From the NCBI GenBank assembly GCA_964428325.1, contig CAYRXU010000004.1:1-56496 (forward strand): DNA of 56,496 nt. Reading direction: 5' to 3'. Shown one piece after another: positions 1 to 47,652 of the stretch. Position 1 is the stretch's first letter. The number at the start of each line of letters is the position of its first letter. This DNA comes from Candidatus Woesearchaeota archaeon. GTDB lineage: Archaea > Nanobdellota > Nanobdellia > Pacearchaeales > GW2011-AR1. Under the pieces are notes generated by a model that did not search any database, was not told the origin of the DNA, and saw nothing but the letters and a program-made list of their open reading frames with translations. The translations under genes and the position numbers were made by a program.

Positions 1-54
1 CAAGGACGATGCCCTTTCGCGGCGTAAACCCGGGTTCGAATCCCGGCAGGGGCA
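1..54 (+). tRNA. tRNA-Glu(TTC), 5'-truncated by the window edge; integration target
   Basis: Anticodon arm ATGCC-CTTTCGC-GGCGT, T-arm CCGGG-TTCGAAT-CCCGG, acceptor 3' strand CAGGGGC plus discriminator A; nearly identical to the tRNA-Glu at 41057. Confidence 0.9.
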
Positions 55-56
55 TC
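44..56 (+). repeat. attL core (13-bp direct repeat overlapping the tRNA 3' end)
   Basis: CGGCAGGGGCATC, identical to 18460-18472. Confidence 0.9.
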
Positions 57-120: not shown

Positions 121-1293
121 TTGGGACAAAAACCCATGAAAATCGACCCCTATAACCATAAAGAACGATACCTCGAGTGGAAAGAAGAAGCCACAAAAAC
201 AGGAATCAGAGACGTAGGCACATACAATTCTGATCTTATACTGAAATACTTAAACGATATGGAAAAGGGAATTAACATATCGATGGTAAGCGTTAAGGGA
301 GGTAGAAGTCATATGCGACTCTGTTCCTTACGAGATAGATTACGATTCTTTTCATTAAAGTTCAAAGAGCTCTACGATCTTGATCGAATAACCAATGTCT
401 CAGAAGAACAAGTAATTGGTTTTTTCGCTGATATGAAAAGCGGAGTCATATCGAGAAAGGACGGCAAGCAGTTTAAGTCGACAGATACGGCAGTCAAAAT
501 CTTCAAAGCTTTTTGGCATTGGTATCAGAAGATGAGTAAAAAACAAGGTTTAGAAGTGCCCGATATAACGTTAGACCTCGATACAAGAGCAGAGAAGCCC
601 GACTGGGTGTATCTTACGGAAGAAGAAATAAAGAAATTATGCGACAATGTAAAACCAGACTACAAGACACTAATCATGTTTCTGTTCGATACAGGAATTA
701 GAGCTCCAACTGAATTGATGAATATTAAAGTTTCTGACTTATATAGTGAGTGTAAAGAAGTTAATATTCGAGAGGAAGCAAGCAAAACATTCGGGAGACG
801 AATAAAACTGATGCTCTGTTCTCATATGGTTAAAGAGCATATTAAGAACAATAAACTGACTAAAGAAGACTATCTCTTCCCCATTAGCCCAGGAAGAACA
901 AATGAATATCTAAAAAGAACTGCACAACGCGTATTCGGAGAGGGGAAAACACTAGCAGGGCAAAAATACTCAGAACTAACGATGTATGATTTTCGCCACA
1001 ACTCATGTTGCTACTGGCTCCCACGTTACAAATCAGAATCTGCACTCAAATACAGATTCGGCTGGAAGAAAAGCGAGAAAATTCATTATTACAGCGAGCT
1101 ATTGGGAATGAAAGACACTATCTCCGAAGATGATCTCCTCATCGACACAACAAAAACAGAAATAGAAAAAAGGCTGGCTCAATCAGAAAAAGAAAGAGGA
1201 ATTATGGAAGAAAAAATAAAGACAATGGAGCTCCAGATGATCAATATCCTAGAACTTGTGAAGCAATTAGAAATAACCCATAAAATAGCCTAA
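121..1293 (+). CDS. Tyrosine recombinase/integrase (probable ATG at 136)
   Basis: GIRAPTEL (Arg), SKT (Lys), YDFRH, RFGW, IHYYS (Tyr); located beside the tRNA att site. Confidence 0.9.
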   Translation: MGQKPMKIDPYNHKERYLEWKEEATKTGIRDVGTYNSDLILKYLNDMEKGINISMVSVKGGRSHMRLCSLRDRLRFFSLKFKELYDLDRITNVSEEQVIGFFADMKSGVISRKDGKQFKSTDTAVKIFKAFWHWYQKMSKKQGLEVPDITLDLDTRAEKPDWVYLTEEEIKKLCDNVKPDYKTLIMFLFDTGIRAPTELMNIKVSDLYSECKEVNIREEASKTFGRRIKLMLCSHMVKEHIKNNKLTKEDYLFPISPGRTNEYLKRTAQRVFGEGKTLAGQKYSELTMYDFRHNSCCYWLPRYKSESALKYRFGWKKSEKIHYYSELLGMKDTISEDDLLIDTTKTEIEKRLAQSEKERGIMEEKIKTMELQMINILELVKQLEITHKIA

Positions 1294-4411: not shown

Positions 4412-5584
4412 TTAAGGTTGTGTTTTCTGACTGTCAGAACTTTCTTTCTTATGTTGAAAATCGTAATTTCTAGTGGTTATCTTCTCAACAAGTTTAACAG
4501 CTTCTATTATGAGTTTCCTTGCTTTCTCCTTATCAATGTCTGGTTTCATGATGCTTCTTAGAGCAGGCAAATTTTCAGCAGTCAGATAAGTTGGTTTGGG
4601 AGGGTGTTCGCCTTTCAGCGAAATCATGTAGGCAGGAACGACTACCTCGGGAATTATTTTGTGGAGATTAGAATGAACATAGTTGTTTCTTATGAATTCC
4701 CTAAGTTCTTGAAGGTATTTTTTCTCTTGATCACCAATAAATCCTTGCGAATGACAATCGTTTATTAAATTCTCTAGCTCTGCTTCATAGTGCTCTTTCT
4801 TTTTATAGAACCATATTTCTTTCAAAAAAGACTCTATGAATATAGAGAGCATACAGATAGAAGCATTAAAGTTTCCAAACCAAAAATTACTTATGGTTTC
4901 ATAATATAAGGATTTATTTTCAGCTTCTAAGTGGATTCTATCATTAATTAGAGGTAATTGCCTCATTCTATCTATGATCTCGTCTTTTTTAGCTAAAAAG
5001 GAATTATACATCTTTTCCGCTTCTTCTTTTTTTAAGAAATATTCTTCTTCTTTTATCATTCGTTTGTGCAAATCTTTAGGGGCAGACATTAATTCATCAA
5101 ATTCCTTAATCTGCGCGTTTAAACCCTTTATTTCCTCCGATTCTTCAGAAAATCCCCTCCCAAGCATTTTCTCTTTCTTATACAGAAATCTTTCTCTTTG
5201 TATCGCTAGATTTGAAGCAGAAACAAATTCAGCAGGATTCTGAATCGATTCCACATTAGCACTATTCTTTAAACTACTGAAATACTCAGCAATTTTGTAA
5301 ATATTATTATTTTCATCTTTAAATGATTGGAATAATTTAGATTTCTTTCGAAACTCCAAGAATTCTTTTTGATCAATTATTTTATTTTCATACAGATAGT
5401 CTAAGAGGGTTTGAACATCACATTCATTTTTAATCTCTCGAGCCAAATAGTGATAAAATTCTAGTTTCTGGCCGATCATTATTTTATCGATTATCTCCCC
5501 TATTCCTTTTCTAAATTCGTAGAATTCTTTTTTCAGTTTTTCATAGTCAGAACTTTCTTCATCCATTCGCTCTAATCTCTCCAT
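4412..5584 (-). CDS. Protein with N-terminal helical/coiled-coil region and C-terminal HEPN-like domain
   Basis: C-terminal IESFLKE...RNNYVH (Rx4H); lies between hsdS and hsdR. Confidence 0.6.
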
Positions 5585-6812
5585 TCATTAATTTAGGCAA
5601 AAGCGAATCTCTGATTTTCATTAGAGAATAATTTTCGTAAAAGTTCTTTTCCATTGTTCTTCTAATAGGTTTAATAATCTGATCAAAAGATTCTAAACTT
5701 TTTTTATCTGGTATTAAAACGTTTACCTTCTTTATTCCCTTAACATTAAAACTATCAAAAATAGTTCCTCTGTCTATATTCTTCTCTATTTCGTCTCTTC
5801 CTAATTGAGAATGGAGAAATAGGAGTAAGTAAAAAGGAGAGATGGTAGTTGCCCTTATAGCAGTTATGTTTCTACCTATGCCTGCTTTAAAATTGTAAGG
5901 GGTCTGGGATATGTTCCCAGAGAAACCTGCGTTGTTGATCAATATATCTCCTTCTTCAACTTCTATATTATTTGTCCAAATACTATAATCTTCTTCGCTT
6001 ATAAAATACTTCTTATCTAAATTAAGCAGACCTTTTTGACCCATATTATAAAATTGCAATAGTAATTTTCCCCCTTCTTTTTCTTCTGGCTTTTTAGTAT
6101 GTAAACAATCAATCACTCTTGCAATTTCAGGTAATTTTTTAATCTCCCAAGTATCTTTTCGTTCATCGATAAACCATTTCTTAAAAAACGCCTGCCCAAT
6201 ATTTTCAAGCGTTCTATTCATTTGATTGTTGAGTTCTATTTTATCCTGAATTATCTTGTAAAATTTACCTATTTCTTGCTGTTCTTTAATTTTTGGCAAT
6301 GGGATAATAAAAGACTTCATTTTCCCCCCATCAATAGCTCTTCTAGATGACCCAGAATTAAATGATCCAATATAATTTTTAGTTTGAGGCAAGATAAGAT
6401 ATGCATTCAGAAACCAAGGAGATAGTCTTTCTTTATTACATCTGATACAACCAACTGAACGAGTGATCACTGCGGGCAACATGTCCTTTGGAACTATACA
6501 TGATCTTGCAAAAGTTATGCCATCCCCAAGCTGATTTAATAAAACATCTTCCTCTTCCAATTCAGCAGATTTTAATTCTAGATATTGTTCTTTAGAGATG
6601 TATCCCACTTTTGACTTATCAAGATAGCCATCAAAAACAGGAGCACTCTGAATAATGCGAAACGCCGTAAGTTTATTAGAATGGCTTTGTTTTCCTCCTT
6701 TAGGGTCTCTTCCGCAAAATATTTTTTTGACACTACTTCCTAACTTGGTTATTTCCCAATCTTCTGGAATCTTTCCTATTTCAGTTTGTTTGAACTTGGT
6801 TTGTTGCTTCAT
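5559..6812 (-). CDS. hsdS: Type I R-M specificity subunit
   Basis: IGKIPEDWEITKLG start, central IPLPKIKEQQEI...WEIKKL conserved repeat, terminal [12 protein letters not shown]; ATG at 6812 (ORF track starts at 6821). Confidence 0.95.
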   Translation of the reverse strand: MKQQTKFKQTEIGKIPEDWEITKLGSSVKKIFCGRDPKGGKQSHSNKLTAFRIIQSAPVFDGYLDKSKVGYISKEQYLELKSAELEEEDVLLNQLGDGITFARSCIVPKDMLPAVITRSVGCIRCNKERLSPWFLNAYLILPQTKNYIGSFNSGSSRRAIDGGKMKSFIIPLPKIKEQQEIGKFYKIIQDKIELNNQMNRTLENIGQAFFKKWFIDERKDTWEIKKLPEIARVIDCLHTKKPEEKEGGKLLLQFYNMGQKGLLNLDKKYFISEEDYSIWTNNIEVEEGDILINNAGFSGNISQTPYNFKAGIGRNITAIRATTISPFYLLLFLHSQLGRDEIEKNIDRGTIFDSFNVKGIKKVNVLIPDKKSLESFDQIIKPIRRTMEKNFYENYSLMKIRDSLLPKLMNGEIRANG

Positions 6813-18355: not shown

Positions 18356-18406
18356 TATTCTAGTAGTCACAGTTTAGTGGTCGACAATCCTTAAAAACAT
18401 CCATCT

Positions 18407-18447
18407 CATGGACATCTAAAGGGCAAATGCCCACTCAAATCACATAA
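18407..18447 (-). repeat. Right subterminal inverted arm of the element
   Basis: Reverse complement matches 63-103 at 32/41. Confidence 0.85.
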
Positions 18448-18459
18448 AGGGGTGTTGCT

Positions 18460-18472
18460 CGGCAGGGGCATC
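18460..18472 (+). repeat. attR core
   Basis: CGGCAGGGGCATC, identical to 44-56. Confidence 0.9.
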
Positions 18473-29896: not shown

Positions 29897-29967
29897 TGGA
29901 CCTGAAGGGAATCGAACCCCTGTCCTCTGCTCTGGAGGCAGATATCCTACCATTGAACGACAGATCC
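29897..29967 (-). tRNA. tRNA-Trp(CCA), intronless
   Basis: GGATCTG...CAGGTCC acceptor; anticodon arm TCTGC-CTCCAGA-GCAGA. Confidence 0.95.
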
Positions 29968-30119
29968 GTTATTTCCTAAAAACAAAGGGCTGTTTTAAGT
30001 CTTCGCATCAGAGAGTTTTCAGCTAAAGTTTAAACTTGAAGATGCTCAGAAATGCGACGTCAAAGAAGCATTCCTAACATCGGAAGAACATTTATAAACA
30101 ATTTTACCCCTTATAAGAG

Positions 30120-30536
30120 ATGCATAAAAAAGAGGCTAAGCACACACATAGTGCCCATCATGCAACATCATCTTCTTCACCGCGCCAGCTTGAAGAACGT
30201 TTGATCGATAATCTTGTTCAGTTACAAAAAGTCCATACAGACCTAGCAGACAAGTTCCACGCACTATCAAAGCAAATCGAAAGCCTTGTCGGACTCTTTG
30301 AGTTATCAGCACGGGCATTTGCAAAGCAAGTCAATGTGCCAGGTGCAGAAAAAGATAGAGAATTTTTAGATAAAATAGACAGACTCCTAGATCAAAACAA
30401 GACTATTGCAAAGGGCCTTACACTCATGGAAGAGAAAATGCGTGAAAGGCTCTACGGCACTCAACCGCAAGCATCACCTTCACCATTTTCGCGTCCTGCT
30501 CCAGTCGTTGATGCACGTCCATTGCCACGTATCTAA
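30120..30536 (+). CDS. Hypothetical coiled-coil protein
   Basis: 138 aa; TTTATA 29 nt upstream. Confidence 0.65.
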   Translation: MHKKEAKHTHSAHHATSSSSPRQLEERLIDNLVQLQKVHTDLADKFHALSKQIESLVGLFELSARAFAKQVNVPGAEKDREFLDKIDRLLDQNKTIAKGLTLMEEKMRERLYGTQPQASPSPFSRPAPVVDARPLPRI

Positions 30537-41056: not shown

Positions 41057-41223
41057 GCCTTTGTAGTCTAGTGGTCAAGGACGACGCCCTCTCGAACGCC
41101 GAGCTGCTATATCGCTGAGATTATGCACTCAGTCCATCTTGGACAGGCATTCCTATTTCGGGTTTGCATCTCGCAAACCCTTGGAGAACGGCGTAAACCC
41201 GGGTTCGAATCCCGGCAAGGGCA
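41057..41223 (+). tRNA. tRNA-Glu(CTC) with a 94-nt intron at 37/38 (41095-41188)
   Basis: GCCTTTG/CAAGGGC acceptor; exons match the tRNA-Glu at 1-54; CTCT/GGAG central helix with 3-nt bulges (BHB-like). Confidence 0.9.
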
Positions 41224-41284
41224 GTTTACCGACGGGTCATTTTTGATGGGATATAGGCTATTTTTTGGCGATTTTGACGGGACT

Positions 41285-41782
41285 TTAAATAAAAGAAATA
41301 GTACGCTCAATTTTAGAGACGAGAGCTTCTTTTTGAGAATGGGATAATTTATTCTTGATTACCTCAGTTTCAACAAGGAGATGAATAATTTCATGTTGCA
41401 AAACATTCACAAATGGCTTATTTATCTGATTCCCTGCAACATTAACAATAACCTTATTAGGCAATACATACGAACCTCCAACCCCATAAAAAGTAATAAT
41501 TAGTTCTATTTTTTCAGGAAGCGCTTTGCTAAAAAATTTCTCTAAATTGGATAAGAACCTTTCTCGAATATCCTTAAATTCAAGAAGGAGTTTTTCTCCA
41601 AGACGTTTATATTTTTCAGAATCAAAATGAGTATCAACAAAAGACCTAATAGCTTCTTCATCGTAAGGAATATTTGGAAGGAGGGGCCTATATCCGTGAT
41701 GAGAATACCAGCCAATTTTATCATAAGTTTGTTTAATTCGGTTAACCTCAAAATGCTTGTTATACTTTAATTTTAACAACAT
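41285..41782 (-). CDS. HExxH-motif protein (putative zinc metallopeptidase)
   Basis: LQHEIIHL; probable ATG at 41782 with a TATA box at 41804-41809. Confidence 0.55.
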   Translation of the reverse strand: MLLKLKYNKHFEVNRIKQTYDKIGWYSHHGYRPLLPNIPYDEEAIRSFVDTHFDSEKYKRLGEKLLLEFKDIRERFLSNLEKFFSKALPEKIELIITFYGVGGSYVLPNKVIVNVAGNQINKPFVNVLQHEIIHLLVETEVIKNKLSHSQKEALVSKIERTISFI

Positions 41783-41811
41783 GAAATAAAATATCAAATC
41801 AGATATAAATA

Positions 41812-42153
41812 CTAATCGAATCCGCTAGGCCCAAGAGTTCTCAAAATATGTTTAATCTCTTCGATCACTTTTTGTTGATCTTTCTTGTTCGACATTCGAA
41901 CAAACCGCATCAATAAATCAGTTAATGTCTCTTGACTAAAAACGCGGATTTTACGCGCGTCGGTAATAAAATAAAATCGGTACCCTTCGTAACGTAACTC
42001 CTTAATCTCAATCCCACCAACATGCCCCAGAGCCTTTCCTTTATTAGGCGAACCTTCAAGCGACTTTAAATGTCGAAGTACATTAACAGAATTGCCTTTG
42101 AAATGTTTATTAATTTCCTCTTCTAAAGAAGGAACAATCTCTACCGAGACCAT
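41812..42153 (-). CDS. RelE/ParE-like toxin
   Basis: LEGSPNKGKAL...IKELRYEGYRFYF; downstream of a small antitoxin-like gene. Confidence 0.65.
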   Translation of the reverse strand: MVSVEIVPSLEEEINKHFKGNSVNVLRHLKSLEGSPNKGKALGHVGGIEIKELRYEGYRFYFITDARKIRVFSQETLTDLLMRFVRMSNKKDQQKVIEEIKHILRTLGPSGFD

Positions 42154-42341
42154 CGTTTTTTAGCTCGAGCTATAGCTTCATCAATGGGGATAGCATCTCC
42201 CTCAAACAAAAATTGCCGTAACTGCTCCTTAACTGCCATTGAGTAAATGCGATTAATGATATCATCGTAGGAATCTCCTTTAGTACCGAATGACTGAAGT
42301 TTTTCCTTAGTGCTTTCATCAACTTGTATAGTAGTTACCAT
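42141..42341 (-). CDS. Small RHH-like antitoxin (probable ATG at 42341)
   Basis: TTIQVDESTKEKL...SYDDIINRI; overlaps the toxin start. Confidence 0.7.
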   Translation of the reverse strand: MVTTIQVDESTKEKLQSFGTKGDSYDDIINRIYSMAVKEQLRQFLFEGDAIPIDEAIARAKKRWSR

Positions 42342-42448
42342 AGTACCTATAGCCACTACATCCGCGATAGTATATAAATTTTTCGCTTCTTGACCACGCC
42401 TCGACAATCCTTATAAATCAAGCCAGTCTTTACAAAACTGTAAGCTCG

Positions 42449-42494
42449 AATGCCCACTAAAATCGCAGGATAGGGTATTGCTCGACAAGGGCAT
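42449..42494 (+). repeat. Right-end motif plus attR of the mini-element
   Basis: Ungapped 37/46 match to 18426-18471; AATGCCCACTAAAATCGC is the exact reverse complement of 67-84. Confidence 0.85.
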
Positions 42495-42571
42495 AAACTT
42501 TACATAGGTTAAGATAACCTCATAAACTCAAAGAGGAAAGAATATTTATAACCTAATTTGTAAAAACAAGC

Positions 42572-43264
42572 GTGAAATTTACAAGAAGAGCGTTATTAAC
42601 CGCATCATTAATTGGCGCTGGCACAATAACTTTCTATCTAACCAGTGAAAAAAATATCCCTCGTCCAGAGAGTTATACCTTTTCTCCAGAAGACATGAGC
42701 CTTCTTGAACAATCTACTAGAATATATGCAAGAACTCTCAAGGTGATTCCAGAATATAAGCCGTATACAGAATCTGAAAAGCAAGAATTCAGAGCGTTCC
42801 TAAAAGAAAGAAATATATCTCCAGATTCAGCACAATTTCCAGAAATATCCTACTCATTTTCATCAGTCAATTCTAATTTAGATAAATTAGAAAGAAGCCT
42901 TGGAAACTCAGACCCTGCATTTAGTAGGTTTCTCTCAGAAAAAGAGAAAGAAAGAATGGGGATTGCAATTCCAGCCATCTATTTTATTGCAGATCAAAAC
43001 CCTCCCGATCTTGTAATTACAAGATCTGAAGCGGCAACCGTAGGACAGGCCCTGATTGATGCTAAACTTATTCAATTTGGAGCTGAACTAAAGAATTACG
43101 ACCAAAAGACATTAGCAGAAGGATTAGGAATAACAGAAATCGAACTAGAGCGAAGAATCAAGGATTACCGCAGAACATACTTGCGAAGCAAAGAACTTCC
43201 ATGGAGCAGTAGTTCTCTTCCAGATTTAGAAAAGACTTTCAAGCACCTCAGGAAAAAGGACTAG
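42572..43264 (+). CDS. Hypothetical exported protein
   Basis: RR plus hydrophobic N-terminus; GTG start. Confidence 0.6.
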   Translation: MKFTRRALLTASLIGAGTITFYLTSEKNIPRPESYTFSPEDMSLLEQSTRIYARTLKVIPEYKPYTESEKQEFRAFLKERNISPDSAQFPEISYSFSSVNSNLDKLERSLGNSDPAFSRFLSEKEKERMGIAIPAIYFIADQNPPDLVITRSEAATVGQALIDAKLIQFGAELKNYDQKTLAEGLGITEIELERRIKDYRRTYLRSKELPWSSSSLPDLEKTFKHLRKKD

Positions 43265-43279
43265 AAACAAATAGAAATA

Positions 43280-43873
43280 CTAATATCCATTCCCATTGAA
43301 TCTATTTACCAAAAGTTTGCCAAGATAATATGCAGAACCAAACACAACTATCCCTGGCAGAAGCGCAAGTCCCAGACTTGGAACAAGTAAACCCACCCCA
43401 ACAGTGCCTAAAGTTCCTGCTCCAATAGATTCGAGAAATTCAACGGCCCCCCTTACAGATTTCTCCACGTTTCTTTGCAAAGCATCGATCTGCATTATTA
43501 TTTTTCCACCCTTAAAGATTCTAAGCTTCTTGTCCTCTTCAGATACCAGAACAACAAAATTCCCTCCGATAGATGCGCTCAATGCGGCACTATGTCTTGT
43601 ACCAAACCCTCTGAAAGTCTGCTTGGTTTTTATCATTACTCCATACGCTCGCATCATTCCGGCACGGTCAATGACAACTGCCCCATCAATCAAAGCCAGG
43701 GATTCAAGCAGTTTTAAGTTATCGAGAACCATAAAAGAGGGAACGCTCTGTTCAACAAGAGGTTCATAATCCACATCACCCACGACAAAAATAGCCCCTT
43801 CTGATCTTTTGGCTATCCTCAAACCTACCTGAATTAACGACTCCTCAAGTTTTTTCTGAAAGATTGCATACAC
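43280..43873 (-). CDS. Diadenylate cyclase (DAC-domain) protein with hydrophobic C-terminus; start uncertain
   Basis: IDGAVVI, GTRHSAA; in-frame GTG at 43873 or out-of-frame ATG at 43869. Confidence 0.85.
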   Translation of the reverse strand: MYAIFQKKLEESLIQVGLRIAKRSEGAIFVVGDVDYEPLVEQSVPSFMVLDNLKLLESLALIDGAVVIDRAGMMRAYGVMIKTKQTFRGFGTRHSAALSASIGGNFVVLVSEEDKKLRIFKGGKIIMQIDALQRNVEKSVRGAVEFLESIGAGTLGTVGVGLLVPSLGLALLPGIVVFGSAYYLGKLLVNRFNGNGY

Positions 43874-43952
43874 AATAGTATTTTTACAAGTTTTAAACAT
43901 TGTGAAACAAAACAGTATAAAAATATATAAGCAGCCGCGGCATATTGCAATT

Positions 43953-45083
43953 ATGGAAGAAATAAAAACAGAGGTGTTGGCAAATAGCATACCAATCCCA
44001 ATTGTTGATGACGATAAAAAAGAAGTGCAGCAAACAATTATCCAGCTTCCCGACTACAATCAAAAGCTCACCGACGAAGAAATCGTCGACATCTTGCGCG
44101 TGGTTGCGCCAGGTACAAATCTTCGCACAGCACTTGAAGGCGTAGTTAAAATAGGAAAGGGTGCGTTAATTGTTGTAGAAAATGAATTCACTCCTTCGCT
44201 CATTGATGGAGGATTCAAACTCAACTGCAGGTTCACGCCACAACGCCTAATGGAACTCTCAAAAATGGACGGAGCCATAATCCTTTCCGCCGATATGAAA
44301 AAAATCATGCACGCTAACGTTCTTCTCACCCCAGATAGCCGAATCCCAACAAACGAAACAGGAACGCGTCACAAAGCAGCCGAGCGTACAGCACGTATGG
44401 CAGGTTCACTTGTGATTGCAGTCTCAGAAAGAAAACACGAGACAACAGTCTATTACAAAAATTTGCGAAGAACCTTACTCAACAGCAGCGAACTATTGAG
44501 AAAAACAAATGAACATATCCAACTTCTTGAAAAACAAAGAGAATTATTCGACAGCAGTATAGAGCACCTAACAAAGATAGAAATGCGCAATTATCCAAGT
44601 TTAGACGCAGCCATGCAAGTAGTTCAAAAAGGATACGCCATACAAAAGATCGCAGAAGATATTCAACGTAGCCTAATAGAGTTAGGAAAAGAGGGTTCGC
44701 TACTGAAAACAAGACTCAAAGAACTTCTTACAGACGTCAGAGAAGAAACCGAACTCGTTATAAAAGACTACACCAAACTAGATGTCAAAAAATCACGCAC
44801 ACTTCTTCAATCACTTACTTATGAAGAACTACTCGATAAAGAAAACATCATCAAATCACTGGCTTACGAAGACCATTTACAACACAAGCAAATCAAGGGT
44901 TGGCGCGTACTTAACAAAACCTCTCTCGCCGAATCAGAAATCGCTCTACTAATTAAGGAAGCCGGTACTCTAGGTAAGGCCCTCAATTCACAATTAGGAT
45001 TTTACAAAACAATTCTGGGCAATGAGCGTGGTGCAGCCATAAAAGAAGAGATAGAGCTTATCAAGCTACACGATTCTTTCTAA
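43953..45083 (+). CDS. disA: DNA integrity scanning diadenylate cyclase DisA
   Basis: APGTNLRTALE, MELSKMDGAIIL, ETGTRHKAAERTA, linker and degenerate HhH; ATG at 43953 is 29 nt from a TATA box. Confidence 0.9.
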   Translation: MEEIKTEVLANSIPIPIVDDDKKEVQQTIIQLPDYNQKLTDEEIVDILRVVAPGTNLRTALEGVVKIGKGALIVVENEFTPSLIDGGFKLNCRFTPQRLMELSKMDGAIILSADMKKIMHANVLLTPDSRIPTNETGTRHKAAERTARMAGSLVIAVSERKHETTVYYKNLRRTLLNSSELLRKTNEHIQLLEKQRELFDSSIEHLTKIEMRNYPSLDAAMQVVQKGYAIQKIAEDIQRSLIELGKEGSLLKTRLKELLTDVREETELVIKDYTKLDVKKSRTLLQSLTYEELLDKENIIKSLAYEDHLQHKQIKGWRVLNKTSLAESEIALLIKEAGTLGKALNSQLGFYKTILGNERGAAIKEEIELIKLHDSF

Positions 45084-46678: not shown

Positions 46679-47644
46679 ATGACGCAGACCGATATCTGGA
46701 CAGAAAGATACCGGCCAGCAAACTTTGAAGAGGTCGTTGGTCAACACGAAATTGTTAAGCGTGTTCGCTCGTTAGTACAAGCAATGAACATTCCTCATCT
46801 ATTGTTCGCAGGCCCAGCAGGAACAGGAAAATCAACACTCGCACTAATTATCGTAAAGGAACTTTTCGGCGAAACTTGGAAGCAAAATTATCTTGAGCTC
46901 AACGCAAGCGACGAACGAGGTATTGACGTTGTTCGTCAAAAAGTAAAAGATTTTGCAAGAACAAAAGCCCTAGGTAATGTTCCATTCAAGGTAATCTTCC
47001 TTGACGAAGCTGACGCATTGACAAGAGAAGCACAGCAGGCCCTAAGAAGAACTATGGAAAATTACACCAACACCTGTCGCTTTATCATGTCATGCAACTA
47101 CTCAAGCCAAATCATCGATCCGATACAATCGCGTTGCGTCGTGTTCAGATTCAAACTCCTTGAAAAGAAAGATGTCATGTCAGTCATCAAACGCATAGGC
47201 GAAAAAGAAAAACTCAAGATCGCGGACGACACATTTGACGCACTCTATGAAAGTAGCGAAGGTGATTGCAGAAGAGCAATAAACCTCTTACAAGCCACAG
47301 CATCCATCTCCCCAGACATCAACGCAGAGATGGTAAACATCATCGCATCCAAGTCAAAGCCAGCCAACATCAGAATCGTTCTTGATTACGCCCTTGCAGG
47401 CGACTTCATGAACGCTCGTGAAAAGCTCCTCGATGTCATGCTCAAGGAAAGTATTGCAGGTGTAGACGTCATTAAAGCTATCCAAAAAGAGGTATGGAAT
47501 CTCCAGGTAGAACCAGAACTCAAACTAAGACTCACAGAAAAGACAGGTGAAACAGAGTTCCGTATGGTCGAAGGTAGTGATGAATTCGTGCAACTCCAAG
47601 CCCTCTTGGCATCCTTCGTTATGGCCGGCAGGGGCAAATCCTAA
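46679..47644 (+). CDS. rfcS: Replication factor C small subunit
   Basis: WTERYRP, GPAGTGKS, LELNASDERG, LDEAD, SRC. Confidence 0.97.
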   Translation: MTQTDIWTERYRPANFEEVVGQHEIVKRVRSLVQAMNIPHLLFAGPAGTGKSTLALIIVKELFGETWKQNYLELNASDERGIDVVRQKVKDFARTKALGNVPFKVIFLDEADALTREAQQALRRTMENYTNTCRFIMSCNYSSQIIDPIQSRCVVFRFKLLEKKDVMSVIKRIGEKEKLKIADDTFDALYESSEGDCRRAINLLQATASISPDINAEMVNIIASKSKPANIRIVLDYALAGDFMNAREKLLDVMLKESIAGVDVIKAIQKEVWNLQVEPELKLRLTEKTGETEFRMVEGSDEFVQLQALLASFVMAGRGKS

Positions 47645-47652
47645 TCATAAGC

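Follow-up and report, generated by a model that had tools for sequence, protein, structure and literature searches.

A small insert at the 3' end of tRNA-Glu(CTC)

The window analysed here (the whole stretch of 56,496 nucleotides) is the first 56.5 kb of contig C4 of an archaeal assembly of 0.70 Mb (19 contigs, 87% complete), whose close relatives are groundwater metagenome-assembled genomes deposited as Nanoarchaeota or Pacearchaeota. Introns in its tRNA genes indicate an archaeon, and with these relatives it is placed among the ultra-small archaea of the DPANN type. Two tRNA-Glu genes are occupied by inserts: a mini-element of 1.27 kb (~1.3 kb; 41224–42493) lies in the 3' end of tRNA-Glu(CTC), the anticodon of which was read straight from the sequence, and an 18.4-kb island with a tyrosine integrase gene lies at tRNA-Glu(TTC). 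The mini-element, its attachment (att) sites and its relation to the island are the subject of this analysis, and the features concerned are collected in Table 1.

Three open reading frames (ORFs), all intact in the window, make up the cargo of the mini-element, and domain and profile searches found no recombinase or transfer gene among them. As proposed in an initial annotation, they comprise a RelE-type toxin-antitoxin (TA) pair and a HExxH protein. The predicted structure of the toxin has a RelE/ParE-like fold: Foldseek matched the model to aRelE (1wmi_A; probability 1.00, template modelling (TM) score 0.68) and also to ParE (6xrw) and Mycobacterium tuberculosis (Mtb) RelE, the consistent matches (1wmi_A, 6xrw, 9g12 and 3g5o) having probabilities of 0.7–1.0 and TM scores of 0.56–0.68, at E values of only ~0.1. 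No curated Pfam or NCBIfam family matched the toxin above cut-off, a phmmer search of the PDB returned a spurious repeat-protein match only, and its homologues are all annotated as hypothetical proteins of Pacearchaeota or Nanoarchaeota; the description 'RelE-type' is supported at the level of the predicted fold. The antitoxin gene, which likely starts at the ATG at 42341 (giving 66 aa), precedes the toxin gene in the operon and overlaps it by 13 nt. By this layout and the predicted fold, the pair is assigned to the type II TA systems of the RelE/ParE superfamily. Its family is present in 128 of 401 genomes, usually away from att sites. The HExxH ORF is rare, with matches in five other genomes of the 401 searched, and the homologue contexts read are chromosomal, either adjoining a tRNA-Gln gene or within a copper-ATPase operon.

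The two ends of the mini-element

The mini-element is flanked by a direct repeat of the 3' end of the tRNA, CGGCAAGGGCA at attL and CGACAAGGGCA at attR, which share 8 exact bases and 10/11 overall. As had been claimed, the core, CAAGGGCA, comes from this tRNA: it carries the A at tRNA position 68 (A68) of its own tRNA-Glu(CTC), where it pairs with U5. Among the nine genomes of the genus that were compared (the window genome included), A68 is found in this one alone, and the others have CAGGGGCA, CAGGAGCA or TGGGAGCA. Any overlap of 6–8 bp within CAAGGGCA includes A68, which makes attL and attR a matched pair for recombination. The core differs from that of the 18.4-kb island by one base.

At the right end, the ungapped match of 37/46 previously reported between the mini-element (42449–42494) and the island (18426–18471) is present and non-random, and the similarity proved to be longer, amounting to 75% over 65 nt ungapped and to ~125 nt when gapped. 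This shared stretch runs from the TA promoter region through a box ([C/G]TCGACAATCCTTA, at 18380 and 42400), an arm and a P-arm (GGGTRTTGCT) to the core. Within the arm lies an 18-mer, AATGCCCACTAAAATCGC, which occurs at 42449–42466 on the forward strand and, in the exact reverse complement that had been noted, at 67–84, with a two-mismatch copy at 18426–18443: three hits versus 0.06 expected. The inverted-repeat arms extend over 33 nt with 82% complementarity. Together, the box and the P-arm/core string occur at two places only in the 0.70-Mb assembly, the modules at 42400 and at 18380, and the mini-element is single-copy.

At its end, the conserved box has a TATA-like motif (CCTTATAAAT / CCTTAAAAAC), which faces out of the element at 42400–42418 and at 18380–18398. 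The box recurs in the right ends of two relatives discussed below (G005 and L186), and further copies of it stand at cassette boundaries in G005 and in a third (G297). In a circularised element, the box would face the integrase gene at the left end, across attP. A reading of the right end as a split tRNA or 3'-half gene was dropped: no T-arm pairing was found, and both tRNA-Glu genes are complete.

At the left end, a degenerate arm had been placed at 41268–41286 (14/19). This copy lies above chance (scores of at least 14/19 occur at 6e-5 of window positions, with ~0.006 expected within 100 nt), but a better left end directly follows the attL core, at 41224–41263, and matches the left end of a TA cassette of G297, a genome of a different genus, at 27/40 (P ~9e-6 per position). 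By subtype, the left end belongs with G297 (…ATGGGAT…) and the right end with the island in the window and with G005 (…GTGGGCATT). As read from its arms, the mini-element is thus chimeric, with ends of different subtypes. These comparisons support the earlier proposal of a real element with two ends, derived from the element family of the island and lacking an integrase.

Integrated state in the population

Exact-protein look-ups with the toxin, an orphan gene of the right flank and the upstream gene gave a population sample of 11 different public contigs, which come from at least nine sequencing runs. Across attL and/or attR, all 11 are collinear with the window (97.6–100% identity) and show the integrated state; among them there was neither an excision product of the species nor a circular junction nor an empty site. 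One haplotype, found in three independent public assemblies, has a 1-nt deletion (delta-G, in a G run) at 41683 that frameshifts the HExxH gene; in the TA genes and at the two ends of the element it has no change. Window position 41568 is also listed for this haplotype. One contig (L216) is 99.9% identical to the window over 41149–44065 and 4.5–6.8% diverged from 44066 onwards (compared to 46053). The switch falls inside a DisA-like gene rather than at an att site, which indicates a mosaic contig or homologous exchange between strains, not site-specific transfer.

The integrase-bearing island at tRNA-Glu(TTC)

The integrase of the island is a divergent tyrosine recombinase, which matches the XerA-type model NF040815 at 8e-12, far below the family cut-off, and it is the single copy of its family in the assembly. 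The remaining cargo includes a type I restriction-modification (R-M) system, a radical-SAM cassette and TrmB, GNAT and EamA genes. No replication, virion or transfer genes were found in the 18.4 kb, and the island is therefore classed as a cryptic integrative island. Such an integrase gene stands beside the tRNA-proximal att site in the island and, at tRNA-Glu(TTC), in G005, G003 and G297; it is absent from 41224–42493, and none was found adjoining tRNA-Glu(CTC) in the genus. The earlier claim that one integrase family colonises both tRNA-Glu isoacceptors is upheld in so far as elements with related arms and shared cargo occur at both across genomes.

The window begins within tRNA-Glu(TTC), and a complete copy of this gene is held by the end of contig C18, positions 4659–4713 of which are the same as window positions 1–55 (a 55-nt overlap). 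The assembly thus breaks exactly at the attL of the island, where there may be an alternative population path, such as an empty site or a different insert.

Table 1. Features of the mini-element, its flanks and the 18.4-kb island (window coordinates).
Feature	Position	Strand	Basis or remark
Tyrosine integrase of the 18.4-kb island, only candidate helper	136–1293	+	phrog_1 integrase, 2e-16
Right-end module of the island: box, arm, P-arm and 13-bp core	18380–18472	+	orthologous to right ends of G005 (82.6%) and L186 (85.9%)
tRNA-Glu(CTC), target gene	41057–41223	+	Rfam tRNA, 50.8 bits; ~90-nt intron
attL core CGGCAAGGGCA, 3' acceptor strand of the tRNA	41213–41223	+	direct repeat with 42483–42493
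Left end (P'-type arm)	41224–41263	+	27/40 ungapped, in register, to left end of G297 cassette 3
Register-equivalent arm GTCATTTTTGATGGGATAT	41236–41254	+	12/19 to the arm of the island at the equivalent offset, P ~7e-4
Second, displaced degenerate arm copy	41268–41286	+	14/19 to 67–85
HExxH ORF, 165–170 aa, putative metallopeptidase-like accessory gene	41285–41797	-	weak DUF5700 match, E 0.006
Toxin, 113 aa, RelE/ParE-like predicted fold	41812–42153	-	AlphaFold predicted local distance difference test (pLDDT) 85; Foldseek
Antitoxin, maximal ORF 88 aa	42141–42407	-	PF24434 DUF7557, 7.9e-10; weak VapB_antitox match
Box CTCGACAATCCTTA(TAAAT), part of right-end module, TATA-like, outward-facing	42400–42413	+	common to 18380–18393
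Right inverted-repeat arm (core 18-mer 42449–42466)	42440–42472	+	exact reverse complement of 67–84
P-arm GGGTATTGCT and attR core CGACAAGGGCA	42473–42493	+	P-arm/core string GGGTRTTGCTCGRCARGGGCA at two right ends only
Orphan 230-aa ORF directly right of attR	42572–43264		no homologue in 100 related genomes

The tRNA-Glu(CTC) site in relatives

To compare this site across the genus, the DisA-like gene (43902–45083) was used as the conserved anchor. In G004 the site is empty, the DisA-like gene beginning 87 nt past tRNA-Glu(CTC). In six other members of the genus, the stretch from tRNA to anchor contains 1.2–4.3 kb of cargo, unrelated from one member to the next, and the contig of G002 ends too early for the interval to be read. 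G006 has two cassettes, of 1.4 and 4.8 kb, that are bounded by TCGGCAGGGGCAT and each closed by …GGTCTAGGWTCGGCAGGGGCAT, with no anchor within 8.4 kb. These data support the idea that tRNA-Glu(CTC) is an insertion hot spot. The empty site anticipated by the initial annotation was thus recovered in G004 for the tRNA-to-DisA interval as a whole; for the 1.27-kb unit by itself there was no precise empty site among the relatives, because the gene of the right flank (42572–43264) is an orphan. This 230-aa ORF is 100% conserved in seven public contigs of the species and may be the remnant of an older insert. When the whole mini-element was sought as a unit in relatives, it was not found; G006 and G007 share the TA genes alone (74–75% nucleotide identity), without the ends of the mini-element or the HExxH gene.

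Integrase-less cassettes and tandem arrays at tRNA-Glu(TTC)

Homologous cassettes occur in tandem with an autonomous element in two relatives, G005 and G297, an arrangement not seen at the window locus. In G005, an integrase 65% identical to that of the window lies beside tRNA-Glu(TTC), and ~27 kb past it there is an internal att site with the arms of that element itself. Next is a cassette of 1.35 kb that encodes two TA pairs, of which one is homologous to that of the window, and then come the box, the exact 18-mer and a core, beyond which the flank is syntenic with the window from 19667 onwards. In G297, tRNA-Glu(TTC) is followed by an integrase, its cargo and two cassettes. The integrase element ends in a 46-nt P-arm-plus-core repeat, a second copy of which closes the first cassette (MNT/HepT); the other cassette, with a homologous TA pair (70% aa identity to that of the window), runs past the contig end.

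Integrase-less inserts with the same arms were also found at this tRNA in two further loci. At the orthologous locus on a metagenome contig (L186) there is a one-gene insert of 0.96 kb only, without an integrase, and L136 has tRNA-Glu(TTC), the exact left arm and a 2.7-kb integrase-less insert with Fic and a TA pair that, by eye, looks RelE-like. The right-end module of L186 is 85.9% identical to window 18381–18471, and its flanking genes are 66–73% identical. Across the three species that share the orthologous flank, the right-end module of the island is conserved at 83–86% versus 66–73% for the neighbouring genes, and the DNA between tRNA and module (0.96, 18.4 or 29 kb) is unrelated; the content therefore turns over while the end is kept.

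At a smaller scale, same-strand repeats of the tRNA-Glu 3' core were seen 40–190 nt apart directly behind the tRNA in G002 (contig C24), G007 (contig C20), G124, G103, G173, G226 and G170 (for example, …GCCACTGACGGTATGAGAA…TTCGAATAAACCGGCAGGGGCAT in G002 and G007). They may be minimal att scars.

A broader survey found the integrase family in 109 of the 401 genomes (about a quarter), with many copies truncated, adjoining tRNA-Asp, Glu, Ser and Gln genes. The 12-mer core CGGCAGGGGCAT had ~100 occurrences in 65 of 301 family genomes, versus 3 for the reversed control, and in at least 13 genomes same-strand pairs of it were 40 nt to 40 kb apart. None of six core-bounded intervals sampled has an integrase, and their cargo includes MazE/MazF (PemK), ParE with an unclassified 71-aa partner, a DUF6036 nucleotidyltransferase with a winged helix-turn-helix (wHTH) partner, and TrmB-type regulators. 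Relatives yielded at least ten further inserts that lack an integrase and are bounded by tRNA-Glu core repeats; several of them stand in tandem behind an integrase-bearing element, and a TA pair is present in seven of the nine whose cargo was read. Exact scans with the 18-mer through 596 Gb of genomes and through a metagenome collection gave 85 matches, of which the related loci number only four (two records of G005, L186 and L136), the remainder being chance matches in unrelated bacteria.

Origin of the mini-element

We consider it likely that 41224–42493 is an att-flanked, integrase-less derivative of a family of tRNA-targeting tyrosine-integrase elements, comparable to the cis-mobilisable elements (CIMEs) described below. 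It was probably formed by accretion and deletion and retained through its TA pair, as a relic of a kind that is already known and is common in this archaeal family. The difference in subtype between its ends favours accretion and deletion over a dedicated satellite; taken together with the tandem arrays in relatives and the TA-rich cargo, the chimeric ends point to accretion and deletion followed by TA retention. In the sequence of events that we propose, a member of the family would have integrated by site-specific recombination within CAAGGGCA. Its integrase and most of its cargo would then have been lost, or the ends of different tandem elements would have been fused by accretion and deletion, which would account for the two arms of different subtypes. 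The RelE/ParE-type TA pair would penalise loss of the segment, and the resident integrase (136–1293) could still excise it, given the matched core and the perfect right arm. The initial annotation had suggested, among other things, a deletion remnant kept by its TA pair, and the frequency of TA modules in the other integrase-less inserts fits this suggestion.

Several observations weigh against this interpretation. The public contigs yielded neither an excision product nor an empty site of the species; the left arm is degenerate relative to that of the candidate helper (12/19 and 14/19); a precise empty site for the 1.27 kb was lacking among relatives; and, with an orphan gene as its neighbour, the right boundary is defined by the repeat and the arm only. 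The link between TA pair and element could also be incidental, given that the TA family does not usually occur near att sites.

The orphan neighbour bears equally on where the insert ends. The whole 2.7 kb from tRNA to DisA could be a tandem array of old inserts, in which the mini-element is the tRNA-proximal cassette and which would also take in the orphan gene and perhaps a short DAC gene (43280–43990). We regard this as a minority possibility that nevertheless deserves some weight: G004 lacks everything between tRNA and DisA, the 230-aa gene has no counterpart in 100 relatives, tandem arrays are common in relatives, and L216 is near-identical to the window over this interval and diverged beyond it. 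However, no att core or arm could be detected right of 42493, the short DAC gene is kept beside DisA in G001 and G008 and so is probably chromosomal, and the identity tract of L216 stops inside DisA and not at the site, as expected of homologous recombination or a mosaic contig. A still-active non-autonomous satellite seems unlikely to us. The island integrase would here bind the shared arms and excise or reintegrate the mini-element in trans, or in cis after accretion; the right arm is indeed identical at 18/18 positions to the arm beside the integrase gene, whereas the right arm of the island itself has two mismatches, and the TA genes are intact. The A68-matched cores imply recombination or homogenisation after the variant arose, or a variant imported with the element, and the right-end module is better conserved between species (83–86%) than the flanking genes (66–73%). 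Set against this are the integrated state of all 11 contigs, the frameshifted HExxH gene of one haplotype, the degenerate left arm of a subtype other than that of the right, the one-base difference from the core of the island, and the presence of a single copy in the genome.

It is highly improbable that the locus was never mobile and that box, arm and core are host sequence 3' of tRNA-Glu (for example, a promoter or a recombination landing pad) enclosing ordinary chromosomal genes. In its favour, three genomes have the module at the orthologous flank of tRNA-Glu(TTC) regardless of the content enclosed (0.96, 18.4 or 29 kb); the box also looks like an archaeal TATA promoter, and a similar motif stands ahead of an RFC gene in the strain contig L221. 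The arm, however, is an inverted repeat of the arm beside the integrase gene, the flanking repeat is a copy of the 3' end of the tRNA, most members of the genus lack the module at both tRNA-Glu genes, and the enclosed genes are accessory and patchily distributed. By analogy with integrons, finally, the tRNA-Glu genes could serve as platforms for arrays of short, mostly TA cassettes, each ending in an integrase arm and a tRNA core, which a tRNA-targeting integrase family would add, reshuffle and exchange between the two isoacceptors; the box would drive expression of the integrase or of downstream genes after circularisation, and the mini-element would be one live cassette. We hold this to be distinctly improbable.

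Comparison with known elements

CIMEs are flanked by att sites and lack recombination and transfer genes, as exemplified by CIME/ICESt3 of Streptococcus thermophilus (definition in PMC6323972). Like them, the mini-element has kept attL and attR without integrase or transfer genes, the same genome has an integrase-encoding element with related att sites, and the tandem arrays of G005 and G297 combine an integrase element with att-bounded cassettes, with at least three att copies. It differs in its host, which is an archaeon (DPANN, Pacearchaeota-like), in its partner, a cryptic R-M island without conjugation genes, and in having ends of different arm subtypes; the likeness is here read from sequence, and mobilisation is putative. 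For archaeal elements, there are documented cases both of an integrase lost after integration and of tandem integration (PMC8371274; PMC6563490), and cryptic integrated elements are known from thaumarchaea (PMC6563490). The inserts described here resemble such elements in their tRNA 3'-end att repeats, in an integrase type with its gene intact beside attL, in integrase loss after integration and in re-use of the same site. By contrast, the mini-element is far smaller (1.3 kb, three genes), with TA-dominated cargo and conserved inverted arms inside the att repeats.

The cassette arrays of chromosomal integrons are rich in TA cassettes. The arrays considered here are similar in that short units each end in a recombination site, with many TA modules that would stabilise the array. 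In place of attC hairpins, however, their sites consist of arm-flanked 3' cores of tRNA-Glu; the island integrase is not IntI (TIGR02249, 23.7 bits versus a cut-off of 265); and the cassettes have promoters of their own, with no attI/Pc platform. The family does not belong to the integrons, the integrase scoring far below the cut-off and the sites being tRNA cores with arms, and the likeness is one of analogy.

Miniature inverted-repeat transposable elements (MITEs) are multi-copy and non-coding, with terminal inverted repeats and a transposase-generated target-site duplication. The mini-element, which the initial annotation had called MITE-like, is likewise short and non-autonomous, with terminal inverted sequences common to an autonomous partner. 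The comparison nevertheless had to be given up: the mini-element is single-copy, encodes three proteins and lies in a tRNA att site; its flanking repeat is the core of a site-specific recombination and not a transposon target duplication; and the partner enzyme is a tyrosine recombinase.

The mechanism (att-flanked derivatives, accretion and TA retention) is already established in bacteria and other archaea, whereas the mobile elements of DPANN archaea are poorly charted. Here, one tyrosine-integrase family appears to use tRNA genes as hot spots, both tRNA-Glu isoacceptors included, and much of the material left at those sites seems to be integrase-less, TA-stabilised debris or cassettes. For annotation, this suggests that genes in tRNA-Glu inserts should be treated as accessory and not as core, and it bears on the persistence of defence and addiction modules in genomes of 0.7 Mb. 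A first biochemical test of a DPANN integrase could readily use the short arms and cores as substrates.

Other features of the window

In two places in the window, ARAGORN appears to have been misled by archaeal tRNA genes with introns. The 3' portion of tRNA-Glu(CTC) (41132–41223) was reported as a tRNA-Ala with an intron, a miscall for the gene at 41057–41223, since Rfam and the anticodon reading both give an intron-bearing tRNA-Glu(CTC); a transfer-messenger RNA (tmRNA) was reported at 29897–30346, overlapping tRNA-Trp. Elsewhere, L221, a 99.8%-identical strain contig, has an insertion of ~390 nt (5371–5762 of that contig) with a 95-aa ORF between two RFC genes, corresponding to window 47626–47649. 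It lies a few bases past a chance-looking copy of the core, CGGCAGGGGCAA, and the spacers at this position in G003 and G008 are ~300 nt long.

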